From assembly GCA_964576375.1 (NCBI GenBank), contig CAZNUR010000003.1:3532-67531 (forward strand): a stretch of DNA of 64,000 nt, written 5' to 3'. Origin of the DNA: an uncultured Chitinophaga sp. (GTDB lineage: Bacteria > Bacteroidota > Bacteroidia > Chitinophagales > Chitinophagaceae). The notes beneath the pieces were generated by a model, which made no database searches, was not told where the DNA came from, and was given only the letters and a program-made list of their open reading frames with translations. Both the position numbers and the translations under genes were made by a program. Positions within the stretch are counted from its first letter, which is position 1, and every line of letters starts with the position of its first letter. Below are positions 58,267 to 61,996 of the stretch, one piece after another.

Positions 58267-59934
58267 TTATTGCCCCTGTCGGGAATTTCCTCCGCGACCA
58301 CCAGAATTAGCATCATTCATTCTAATGCGGCGTCCCTTGAAATTTTTTCCATCAATAGCCTTAATAAACTTTCCAGCTACCCTGGAATCCACCTCAACCC
58401 AACTATTCATCTCGCGTAAATCAATTTTTCCCAAAACATCTTTTCTTTGTTCGCTCATATCCAAAAGAAACTGTAAAAAGCTGGCTTTATAAAAACCGTC
58501 TTTTGTTCCCAGGTTGATAAACAACCGTTGGTAAGAAGCGTCGCCTTGTGGCACCGAACCTTGTTCCTGCTTCCTTTTCTTTCCTACTCTAGCATCCGTA
58601 GATTGCTGTCTAAGGTTCAGATCAGCTGCATTCTCGTAATACCGTAAAAAGCGATCAAACTCCAAGGCAGCCACGCGCTGTAAAATTTCCTCTTTACTAA
58701 CCGCTGAAAATTTTTCAGCGAGCATAGGAATATAGGTTTCGTACTCCCCATGACTGATATCTGCTTTTAACAACCTGTCGGTGAAATGGAAAAACTGTTT
58801 TCTACAAACGTCTTTTCCACTAGGAATATCCATGCGATGAAAACGCGTCTGGATCAATTTTTCTATCTGCTTCAACCGGTAGGCTTCACGGGGTGTCACA
58901 ATGGAGACGCATAAACCACTCTTGCCAGCTCGTCCTGTTCTACCGCTACGATGCGTATAAACTTCTGTATCGTCAGGCAATTCGTAATTAATAACGTGCG
59001 TGATACCCTGCACATCAATACCTCTTGCAGCAACATCTGTGGCAACTAGCAATCGAATATTTCGCGTTCTAAATGCACCCATCACACGGTCACGCTGTGC
59101 TTGGGTTAGATCCCCATGGATAGCATCTATGTCATAGCCCTCGCGGGTGAGTTTTTCTGCAATTTCCTGTGCATCTGCTTTGGTGCGAGCAAAGACAATT
59201 CCAAAAATATCAGGGTTAAAATCAATGATCCGCTTCAAGACCTCATAGCGGTAAGGGTGCTGACACTGATAATACTGGTGATCAATATTTACGTTTGCGG
59301 CGTTCATTTTACCGATAGTTACTTCGGTAGGCTCATGCATGTAACGCTTGCTAACTTGTCTGATTTCAGTAGGCATAGTTGCACTGAATAACCAGGTGCT
59401 TTCCCTTTTTGGTGTATTCTGAAGGATAAACTCGATATCTTCCTGAAATCCCATGTTGAGCATTTCGTCAGCCTCATCCAATACCACATACTCTATTTGA
59501 TCGAGCCGAATAGCTTTTCTTTCTATCAAATCAATCAGCCGACCAGGGGTAGCCACGACCACGTGGGTACCTCGCTTAAGGTCCTTCACCTGTGCCCCAA
59601 TAGAGGCTCCTCCGTATACAGGGGTTACCAGCACCTGCCCGGTAATGCCTTGAAATTTTTTAATATCTGAGGTAATCTGAAGACATAGCTCACGAGTGGG
59701 GCAAATTACCAATGCCTGCGGATTTGTTCGTGACCTGTCCAACAAATCAAGTAATGGAAGTCCAAAGGCAGCCGTTTTACCGGTACCTGTTTGTGCTAAA
59801 CCAATAAAATCACGTGTTCCTTGTAAAAGAATGGGAATTGCCTTTTGCTGTATGGGCGTGGGTTCTGTAAACCCAAGTTTCTGAATAGACTGCAAAAGGG
59901 GGGCGCTCAGTCCTAGCGCTTGAAAAGTGTGCAT
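58267..59934 (-). CDS. DEAD-box RNA helicase, CsdA/DeaD-like with DbpA RNA-binding domain (likely start 59934)
   Basis: AQTGTGKT, PTREL, DEAD, SAT, HRSGRTGR, RLFINLG. Confidence 0.95.
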   Translation of the reverse strand: MHTFQALGLSAPLLQSIQKLGFTEPTPIQQKAIPILLQGTRDFIGLAQTGTGKTAAFGLPLLDLLDRSRTNPQALVICPTRELCLQITSDIKKFQGITGQVLVTPVYGGASIGAQVKDLKRGTHVVVATPGRLIDLIERKAIRLDQIEYVVLDEADEMLNMGFQEDIEFILQNTPKRESTWLFSATMPTEIRQVSKRYMHEPTEVTIGKMNAANVNIDHQYYQCQHPYRYEVLKRIIDFNPDIFGIVFARTKADAQEIAEKLTREGYDIDAIHGDLTQAQRDRVMGAFRTRNIRLLVATDVAARGIDVQGITHVINYELPDDTEVYTHRSGRTGRAGKSGLCVSIVTPREAYRLKQIEKLIQTRFHRMDIPSGKDVCRKQFFHFTDRLLKADISHGEYETYIPMLAEKFSAVSKEEILQRVAALEFDRFLRYYENAADLNLRQQSTDARVGKKRKQEQGSVPQGDASYQRLFINLGTKDGFYKASFLQFLLDMSEQRKDVLGKIDLREMNSWVEVDSRVAGKFIKAIDGKNFKGRRIRMNDANSGGRGGNSRQGQ

Positions 59935-59949
59935 GGATAAATTTGAATG

Positions 59950-59979
59950 AAAAAAGAAAGCCGTTCCCGGGGGAACGGC
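59950..59979 (-). terminator. Intrinsic terminator after the small lipoprotein gene
   Basis: Minus strand GCCGTTCC-CCCG-GGAACGGC followed by TTTCTTTTTT. Confidence 0.85.
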
Positions 59980-60003
59980 CTTCGGCAATTACTTGCACTT
60001 GAA

Positions 60004-60183
60004 TTACTTAGCTGTTGTGTCAGCAGCAGGAGCTGTTGTGTCAGCAGCAGCAGTTGTGTCAACTACAGCAGCAGTTGTGTCAACAGTTGCAGCAGTTGTG
60101 TCAGCAGCAGGAGTAGCTTCTCCACCACCATTACATGCTACCAAAGTAGCAGCGATGAAGGCAATTGCAAAAAACTTTTTCAT
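60004..60183 (-). CDS. Small Ala/Thr/Asp-repeat lipoprotein, 59 aa (absent from the ORF track)
   Basis: Translates as MKKFFAIAFIAATLVAC-NGGGEATPAADTTAATVDTTAAVVDTTAAADTTAPAADTTAK; lipobox LVAC, A-rich leader, own terminator. Confidence 0.9.
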   Translation of the reverse strand: MKKFFAIAFIAATLVACNGGGEATPAADTTAATVDTTAAVVDTTAAADTTAPAADTTAK

Positions 60184-60224
60184 TGCTTTTGTTTTTTTTG
60201 TTTTGTGAAATATTTCGCGAATTT

Positions 60225-60250
60225 ATACCCTTTTTTGCAAAAGGTAACCC
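60225..60250 (-). promoter_or_regulatory. Candidate ECF sigma promoter GGGTTAC-N15-GTAT facing the lipoprotein gene
   Basis: Minus strand GGGTTAC cttttgcaaaaaagg GTAT; same motif and spacing as the copy on the plus strand. Confidence 0.6.
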
Positions 60251-60282
60251 ATTGACTATGATTTTTTTTTAGAAACCAGTTC

Positions 60283-60308
60283 GGGTTACTATTTTTAAAA
60301 TTCCGTAT
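60283..60308 (+). promoter_or_regulatory. Candidate autoregulatory ECF promoter GGGTTAC-N15-GTAT facing the sigma gene
   Basis: GGGTTAC tatttttaaaattcc GTAT, ending 16 nt before the GTG start. Confidence 0.6.
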
Positions 60309-60324
60309 TAAACAATCGAGGATA

Positions 60325-60900
60325 GTGAATAGCGAACTTCAGGAGGTTGGACTTTTAAAGGGTTTGGCAGCAGGCGACCGAAAAATCATAGAAGGGATCT
60401 ACAAAGACCACTTTAATATGATACAGTCACTGATTGTCAATAACAATGGCTCTTCAGATGATGCCCGGGACATTTTTCAAGAAGCCATGGTTGTGCTTTA
60501 TGAAAAGGTCAGAACAGGTTCATTTGAACTGAATTGCCAGTTAAAAACCTACCTCTATTCTGTGAGTAAACGATTGTGGTTAAAGCGATTACAACAAAAT
60601 AATCGACTTTTTACTCAAGAGATAGATCTTGAAACCACCGTGCCGGTTGACGAGGAAATTGCTATTCACGAGAAAAGAGATGCGGAATTTGAATTAATGA
60701 GTCAGGCCATCCAACGTCTGGGAGAACCATGCAAAAGTCTTTTGGAAGCCTACTATTTAAGAAAAATGAACATGCAAGACATTGCGCTTCAATTTGGCTA
60801 CACCAATTCGGATAATGCAAAAAACCAGAAGTATAAATGTCTGATGCGGTTAAAAAAACTTTTTTTCTCTGAATATAAAAACAGCAATACCCATGGATGA
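60325..60900 (+). CDS. ECF-type RNA polymerase sigma factor (GTG start)
   Basis: Region 2 DARDIFQEA...LKTYLYSV; region 4 HTH MQDIALQFGY...AKNQKYKCL. Confidence 0.93.
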   Translation: MNSELQEVGLLKGLAAGDRKIIEGIYKDHFNMIQSLIVNNNGSSDDARDIFQEAMVVLYEKVRTGSFELNCQLKTYLYSVSKRLWLKRLQQNNRLFTQEIDLETTVPVDEEIAIHEKRDAEFELMSQAIQRLGEPCKSLLEAYYLRKMNMQDIALQFGYTNSDNAKNQKYKCLMRLKKLFFSEYKNSNTHG

Positions 60901-61996
60901 TTTGAGGCTATTGGATGCAGTTGAAAGATATATCAAGGGTGAAATGCACCCAGACGAACGCGTGCAGTTTGAACAGTTGCGCAAAACCAATGCAGAAGTA
61001 GACCAACTAGTTGTTGAACATACTTTTTTCCTTCAAAAAATGAATCGCTTTGGAGAATGGAAACGATTCAAATCACTTCTCAATGAAATACATGTTGACC
61101 TAGCCGAGCAAGGACAAATCAATTCAGCTCGCTTACAAGGGAAAGCAAAAGTTATCTACCTCTGGAATAGATATAAGAGAGTGAGTGCCATTGCTGCTTC
61201 GATTGCCGTAATCACCACCCTGGTAATTTCCTCATTGGTTTGGATTATTGCGCCAGCATCTCCACGCTCGCAATTCGAAGAGCTAAATAAAAAGTTTAGC
61301 CAGCTAGAGGACAAGACAAGAAAACAAGCCAAAGAAATTGATCGAATAAAAAATAAAGCCACTTCTGTACCACAGGATATCCCATTCACTACTGGAGGTA
61401 CCGGTTTTATTATTGATGCGCGCGGCTATCTGGTGACCAATGCACACGTGGTGGAAGACGCAAAACAAATTGCCATTCAAAATAATCGTGGAGAGTATCT
61501 TGTTAATGTAGTTTTTCAAGATGTAGAAAGGGATATAGCTATATTAAAAATTGAGGACGAAAACTTCAAACCATATACCAGCCTTCCCTATGGACTCAGC
61601 AAGCAAACTGCAAAAATAGCCGAGCCTATTTTTACGTTAGGTTATCCCAGAAACGAAGTAGTATATAGCCAAGGTTACTTGAGCGCAAGAACTGGATTCA
61701 ATGGTGATACACTCAGCTGCCAAATAGAAATTAATGCCAACCGTGGTAACAGCGGAAGTCCTATTCTAAATAGAAAAGGCGAAGTCATTGGAATTCTGAA
61801 TGGGCGTCAAACCAACACCCAAGGTTTTGCCTTTGCCGTACAAAGCAAATACATCTTTGATGTGATTGAAACATTGAGAAAAGAAAAAGATAGCCCTACC
61901 ATCCGCATACCATCCCGTTCGTTATTAAATGGACTTGACCGTACTGAGCAAGTTCGAAAAGTACAAGACTACGTTTACATGGTAAAGGTGAACTAA
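60893..61996 (+). CDS. Membrane-anchored trypsin-like (S1C) serine protease with anti-sigma-like N-terminus
   Basis: ERYIKGEMHPDERVQFE anti-sigma-like helix, one TM segment, coiled coil, GTGF / TNAHVV / DIAILK / GNSGSP triad, no PDZ domain; 8-nt overlap with the sigma gene. Confidence 0.85.
   Translation: MDDLRLLDAVERYIKGEMHPDERVQFEQLRKTNAEVDQLVVEHTFFLQKMNRFGEWKRFKSLLNEIHVDLAEQGQINSARLQGKAKVIYLWNRYKRVSAIAASIAVITTLVISSLVWIIAPASPRSQFEELNKKFSQLEDKTRKQAKEIDRIKNKATSVPQDIPFTTGGTGFIIDARGYLVTNAHVVEDAKQIAIQNNRGEYLVNVVFQDVERDIAILKIEDENFKPYTSLPYGLSKQTAKIAEPIFTLGYPRNEVVYSQGYLSARTGFNGDTLSCQIEINANRGNSGSPILNRKGEVIGILNGRQTNTQGFAFAVQSKYIFDVIETLRKEKDSPTIRIPSRSLLNGLDRTEQVRKVQDYVYMVKVN

Follow-up and report, generated by a model that had tools for sequence, protein, structure and literature searches.

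A conserved pair of outward-facing GGGTTAC/GTAT motifs, predicted to be divergent promoters of an adjacent ECF-type sigma factor in Chitinophaga and related Bacteroidota

Well-studied autoregulated ECF promoters include that of Escherichia coli σE, with the sequence GGAACTT-N16-TCAAA, and that of Bacillus subtilis σW, with the sequence TGAAAC-N16-CGTA. Most described ECF groups recognize AAC in the –35 element and CGT in the –10 element. In the σE–RseA–DegS–RseP system of E. coli, a membrane anti-sigma factor holds the sigma factor, and a serine protease of the DegS/HtrA type lies on the membrane's outer side. Housekeeping promoters in Bacteroidota are built differently, from a –33 TTTG and a –7 TAnnTTTG element. 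Within this phylum, ECF sigma factors of the EcfO/Das1 type (ECF21), together with Reo/Dma1 and NigD lipoproteins, have been described in Bacteroides and Phocaeicola (PMC10927553, PMC13114119).

The window, by which we mean the whole 64,000-nucleotide stretch of DNA that was analysed, contains a spacer between two divergent genes that runs from the ATG of a small lipoprotein gene (60183, minus strand) to the GTG of an ECF-type sigma factor gene (60325, plus strand). The sequence-only reading had placed in this spacer two outward-facing copies of GGGTTAC-N15-GTAT with equal spacing and had given the spacer length as 141 nt. Direct rereading of the coordinates returns the same length and the same two copies, at 60283–60308 on the plus strand and at 60250–60225 on the minus strand. 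The features of the locus are as follows.

59956–59983, minus strand: intrinsic terminator of the lipoprotein transcript, 12-bp stem and T-run (terminator prediction)
60004–60183, minus strand: gene for a 59-aa lipoprotein with lipobox LVAC and five D-T-T sequons, a predicted regulon member (translation)
60207–60216, no strand: perfect 10-nt palindrome GAAATATTTC where the lipoprotein transcript is predicted to start (genus alignment)
60222–60228, minus strand: GTATAAA, –10 element of the predicted lipoprotein-facing promoter (reading, information profile, divergent-copy survey)
60244–60250, minus strand: GGGTTAC, –35 element of the predicted lipoprotein-facing promoter (direct reading and pattern scan)
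60262–60270, no strand: T9/A9 run halfway from one –35 element to the other, conserved in the genus (alignment column block)
60283–60289, plus strand: GGGTTAC, –35 element of the predicted sigma-facing promoter (direct reading and pattern scan)
60305–60311, plus strand: GTATTAA, –10 element of the predicted sigma-facing promoter, separated from the –35 element by 15 nt (reading, alignment, information content)
60325–60900, plus strand: gene for an ECF-type sigma factor of 191 aa, GTG start (TIGR02937, Pfam Sigma70_r2)
60893–61996, plus strand: partner gene, with its first 8 nt inside the sigma gene (ORF reading, domain search)

We consider it highly probable, from the comparative evidence presented below, that the sigma factor encoded at 60325–60900 recognizes the two motifs as a divergent pair of ECF-type promoters. 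Like the σE and σW promoters, the plus-strand motif is bipartite, with –35 and –10 parts at a constant distance from each other, and lies immediately upstream of the sigma gene; its –35 part ends in AC followed by Ts, its –10 part contains GTA, and the predicted system shares with those two a small envelope-related regulon and a co-transcribed partner gene. It differs from them in its sequence, GGGTTAC and GTAT[T/A]AA with TAC in place of AAC, in the second, back-to-back copy that is predicted to drive a divergent gene, and in a predicted sigma mRNA leader that covers only a few nucleotides before the GTG. Judged from sequence, the locus resembles σE–RseA–DegS–RseP in combining a sigma factor, a membrane partner and a protease domain of the HtrA type, but here it is the partner protein that contains the protease domain, and a PDZ domain is absent. 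EcfO–Reo–NigD is the nearest studied analogue in logic, in a comparison of anti-sigma architecture and targets. It has a Bacteroidota ECF sigma factor co-transcribed with a membrane anti-sigma factor and a regulon made up chiefly of phylum-restricted surface lipoproteins (PMC10927553, PMC13114119), and the system predicted here resembles it in these respects, with the partner protein as candidate anti-sigma factor. Reo/Dma1, however, ends in an outer-membrane β-barrel and the partner here in an HtrA-like protease domain, and the targets here are low-complexity lipoproteins of 53–80 aa instead of NigD proteins.

The sigma factor scores 64.8 bits against TIGR02937 (cut-off 42.9) over residues 20–178 and 31.5 bits against Pfam Sigma70_r2. 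Its 191 aa and its restriction to regions 2 and 4 agree with the size and domain content of an ECF (group 4) sigma factor. The partner protein starts with a cytoplasmic part, which is followed by a hydrophobic stretch (residues 97–121) and an HtrA-like Trypsin_2 domain (residues 169–301). The domain search found no PDZ domain in it, profile searches gave no match to an anti-sigma domain model at E ≤ 0.01, and there is no OMP_b-brl match of the kind that would assign the pair to EcfO/Das1–Reo/Dma1 (ECF21).

GGGTTAC-N15-GTAT has two matches in the window, where 0.00 are expected from 100 shuffles. A genome-wide scan, which had been proposed as a check, finds just these two spacer sites in the whole 1.5-Mb assembly (85% complete), and the reversed control has no match. 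By the names given to its close protein relatives, this genome belongs to the Chitinophagaceae. With a weight matrix derived from 67 related sites the two score 37.6 and 36.6 bits, and the rest of the genome reaches at most 12 bits. The motif as first described is short, with 11 specified bases, and two short sequences in an AT-rich spacer might resemble each other by chance; with none expected in shuffles, two sites in 1.5 Mb and conservation in tens of genera, we regard such a coincidence as extremely unlikely. A match to an E. coli-type σ70 promoter in the form TTTGCA-17-TATGAT was rejected, because this consensus belongs to the wrong phylum and the match does not rise above shuffle level.

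Within the genus we compared 30 orthologous loci, whose sigma factors are 59–96% identical; congeneric genomes, like the related genomes discussed further on, are not independent samples. The sigma-facing copy is exact in 29 of the 30 loci and reads AGGTTAC in the remaining one. The divergent copy is exact in 27 of the 30 (at ≤260 nt), and a 28th is situated further off. Apart from the single AGGTTAC, the GGGTTAC and GTAT[T/A]AA elements are constant throughout the alignment, and the 3' halves of the spacers vary freely. The T9/A9 run between the –35 elements is possibly a shared UP-like tract, its position fitting both promoters. From locus to locus the two copies lie between 32 and more than 200 nt apart, yet within each copy the –35/–10 distance is constant. 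This geometry points to two independent bipartite promoters and away from a single palindromic operator. It bears directly on the idea that the motifs are operators of a DNA-binding regulator, or promoters of another alternative sigma factor, and that the adjacent sigma factor is regulated by them instead of reading them, which we judge improbable. The two GGGTTAC boxes do form an inverted repeat, and the genome encodes three other sigma factors of ECF size, so that the assignment of the motif rests on adjacency and co-conservation and not on elimination. However, over the whole range of inter-box gaps each box has its own GTATWAA at 15–16 nt, its orientation is always towards the gene, and its position is fixed relative to the start codons.

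The congeneric information profile reads GGGTTAC-[C/T][T/A]TTT-N10-GTAT[T/A]AA. The –10 part therein extends beyond the GTAT originally described to GTAT[T/A]AA, with 1.2–2.0 bits at each of the seven positions. Most sites of the motif family have a T-tract after the –35 part, and the –35/–10 spacing in relatives is 15 or 16 nt, which gives GGGTTAC-[C/T][T/A]TTT-N10/11-GTAT[T/A]AA as the full consensus. The AAC and CGT of most ECF promoters are replaced here by TAC in the –35 element and by GTA after a variable base in the –10 element. The TAC counts against reading the motifs as an ECF promoter pair; nevertheless, it is a variant of the consensus and does not disqualify the motif from ECF-type recognition.

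The motif extends well beyond the genus. A scan with one genome per species yielded 80 loci, 47 of which, from Chitinophagaceae and Sphingobacteriaceae, encode both the sigma factor and the protease partner. Within 120 nt upstream of the sigma start, all 47 have a sigma-facing GGGTTAC-N15/16-GTATWAA (40 with no mismatch and 7 with one), placed 38–54 nt before the start codon. None of 1560 shuffled upstream regions has a site with at most one mismatch, the best having two. Conservation of motif and spacing in orthologous spacers, another check suggested at the outset, is therefore borne out for both, and the sigma gene is preceded by a conserved bipartite motif at fixed spacing, as for an ECF promoter. 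The carriers among the 47 belong to Puia, Ferruginibacter, Flavisolibacter, Hanamia, Phnomibacter, Chitinophaga, Sediminibacterium, Sphingobacterium, Daejeonella, Albibacterium and other genera. Sphingobacterium spp., Chitinophaga silvatica, Albibacterium bauzanense and Phnomibacter are among the carriers available in culture. The spacers of Sphingobacteriaceae are unrelated in sequence to those of the window's genus, which implies that selection acts on the two boxes only. When one genome per genus of the family is searched with a 14-position pattern, there are 111 matches, against 14 for the reversed control, and 23 genomes contain the exact back-to-back pair. In one genome (G377) both 29-nt sequences of the twin motif are found in identical form on two contigs (C2:993205–993292 and C3:28554–28641), either through duplication or through assembly redundancy.

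The genes that follow the motif outline a small predicted regulon. Divergent copies in other genera precede a lipoprotein of 53–80 aa in 36 of 38 cases, with the gene 22–46 nt downstream, and nearly all of these lipoproteins have two to seven O-glycosylation sequons of the form D-[S/T]-[A/L/I/V/M/T]. In some Sphingobacterium-like loci (L170, L174) three mini-lipoprotein paralogues stand in tandem next to the sigma gene; several of these paralogues have a motif copy of their own, and the sigma gene itself is faced by two copies in tandem. At least 10 larger congeneric genomes have a third copy, situated in front of a 96-aa AMPK1_CBM/CBM48-like gene (L063:1184–1474, minus strand; L064–L069, L072, L074 and L041), the product of which has no signal peptide. 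The leader of this gene contains the conserved block CGATTGCTGTTTG(C/T)CAATGA in most of its loci. Two related genomes have the motif ahead of a gene for a 291-aa SLT lytic transglycosylase protein (L070:1708–2583, plus strand; L071). The 96-aa gene was not found in the window's genome, which is a reduced one, and the detectable regulon there thus consists of two promoters only.

In the window's genus, too, such a lipoprotein follows the divergent copy, and it is conserved in 28 loci. The terminator directly after its gene makes this a one-gene transcription unit. The palindrome GAAATATTTC is invariant in all 28 congeneric loci, 7–8 nt past the lipoprotein-facing GTAT, and other genera preserve part of it. 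A role as a genome-wide operator was rejected, since five occurrences in the genome are the chance level. An Rfam search of 59900–60400 gave two far sub-threshold chance matches and nothing more, and a Pfam search gave no NigD match for the lipoprotein. Assignment of the lipoprotein to the PG1828 family (NF050142) was also rejected, at 32.6 bits against a curated cut-off of 50 bits. Of seven examined loci with PG1828-family proteins above this cut-off, six, from elsewhere in the phylum (L163–L168), have neither motif nor sigma factor and L170 has both. On the grounds of the sub-cut-off score and these six loci, a link to Porphyromonas gingivalis SigH (PG1827) through PG1828 was dropped; the literature searched on PG1828 contains no connection between PG1828 and SigH.

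What ties the motif to this particular sigma factor is their common distribution. Wherever the motif is kept, even in sigma factors with an overall identity as low as 44%, there is hardly any change in the region 4.2 helix, FGYTNADNAK[N/T]QKYKCLxRLKK; in related sigma factors whose upstream regions are without the motif, the helix diverges. The motif, or a close variant of it, persists in more distant relatives of the sigma factor (29–41% identical) that come from other families and orders, one such genome reading GGGTGAC in both copies; the partner proteins of these relatives lack a protease domain and match nothing in Pfam. This implies that the motif follows the sigma factor and not the protease. 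The only congeneric genome examined in which a sigma orthologue was not detected, G011, has the 96-aa gene without the motif upstream of it. In this region (L082:1250–1520) GGGT and GTATTAA are gone and TACCTTTG, an exact housekeeping –7 box, is kept, which may represent a natural promoter swap. The absence is suggestive at most, since the assembly is 88% complete and the missing sigma gene could fall in an assembly gap. Co-variation of the motif with the sigma clade and its region 4.2 helix, and the absence of the motif from a congeneric genome without a detected sigma factor, speak against a separate regulator or another sigma factor and support, at the level of comparative sequence, the original proposal that GGGTTAC/GTAT is the recognition sequence of the adjacent sigma factor.

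The T-rich part of the motif invites comparison with Bacteroidota housekeeping promoters. The sequence-only reading saw no exact TAnnTTTG box facing the sigma gene, and this holds for both strands of the spacer: we found no exact –7 box on either strand of 60150–60340, and hence no σA promoter by this measure. Boxes with one mismatch are present at 60290 (plus strand, TATTTTTA), 60246 (minus strand, TACCTTTT) and 60225 (minus strand, TAAATTCG), and the T-rich elements that overlap the motif match the –7 box at seven of eight positions. The T-rich stretch after GGGT (TACCTTTT, TATTTTTA) might accordingly be a degenerate σA –7 box, with transcription mainly σA-dependent and GTATWAA situated in the leader. 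One-mismatch boxes overlap both copies, an exact box, TACCTTTG, occurs at several of the sites ahead of the 96-aa gene, and in G011 this sequence is retained although the rest of the motif is lost. On the other hand, the lipoprotein-facing copies do not conserve the final G of the box, the sigma-facing copies of Sphingobacteriaceae keep GGGTTAC and GTATTAA yet have no T-tract at all, and an invariant GGG and a GTATWAA at fixed distance are foreign to the σA consensus, as are the full GGGTTAC and GTATWAA elements. We therefore think it very unlikely that the locus depends mainly on σA. A weak basal σA promoter nested in the ECF promoter is possible as an addition. The start of the sigma-facing spacer, TATTTTTAAAA (60290–60300), agrees with the housekeeping –7 box at seven of eight positions and is kept in the genus and in a few further genera of Chitinophagaceae, but not in Sphingobacteriaceae; it could be such a nested basal promoter or simple lineage inertia.

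Returning to the ECF promoter pair, conservation across two Bacteroidota orders indicates that the sigma factor switches on itself and the lipoprotein. The comparative evidence thereby supports what was first proposed from this locus alone, an autoregulated ECF promoter with the lipoprotein as the first member of the regulon; the lipoprotein gene behind 36 of 38 divergent copies, in two orders, speaks for the latter. We suggest that the sigma factor, once free of its membrane partner, would guide RNA polymerase to GGGTTAC as –35 and GTAT[T/A]AA as –10 element. On the plus strand this would transcribe its own operon, encoding the sigma factor and the protease-fused partner, and so amount to positive autoregulation. 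On the minus strand it would yield a monocistronic mRNA for the 59-aa lipoprotein, ending at the strong terminator. By analogy with other ECF promoters, transcription would start about 8 nt past GTAT, and the predicted start of the lipoprotein transcript would then be the first base of the palindrome GAAATATTTC. For the sigma mRNA the predicted leader before the start codon is about 8 nt here and 4–5 nt in most relatives (range about 4–10). The GTG start is kept in orthologues, and in Chitinophagaceae it lies 12–17 nt past GTAT, so that the ECF-driven sigma transcript would be nearly leaderless, with a GUG start. A predicted leader this short before GUG is unusual and counts against the promoter-pair reading. 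Binding of the sigma factor to the motif, the start positions and release of the sigma factor by the partner protein are all inferred. A bolder and improbable extension is that the mini-lipoprotein is not just a passive target but the input of the circuit, a short tether composed almost entirely of O-glycosylation sequons, whose state of glycosylation or trafficking the predicted anti-sigma factor could read through its periplasmic protease domain. In that case the twin promoters would complete a feedback loop by which Bacteroidota keep watch on their machinery for envelope glycosylation or lipoprotein export.

In kind, the feature is an ordinary, textbook autoregulated ECF promoter with a divergent target. 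Its consensus, which as far as the literature searched shows is new, belongs to an unstudied ECF group and differs from the described ones in having TAC for AAC. The papers found in this search report neither a GGGTTAC/GTAT consensus nor a protease-fused partner. The sigma factor and its promoter form a pair that could possibly serve as an orthogonal genetic switch. For the family, the motif provides a precise and testable recognition sequence for the ECF sigma group of most Chitinophagaceae genera and of Sphingobacteriaceae. The predicted regulon is minimal, comprising the sigma factor's own operon and a tiny sequon-rich lipoprotein, to which larger genomes add a CBM48-like protein and a lytic transglycosylase. 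Together they make up a compact envelope-signalling module that is now open to direct experiment.
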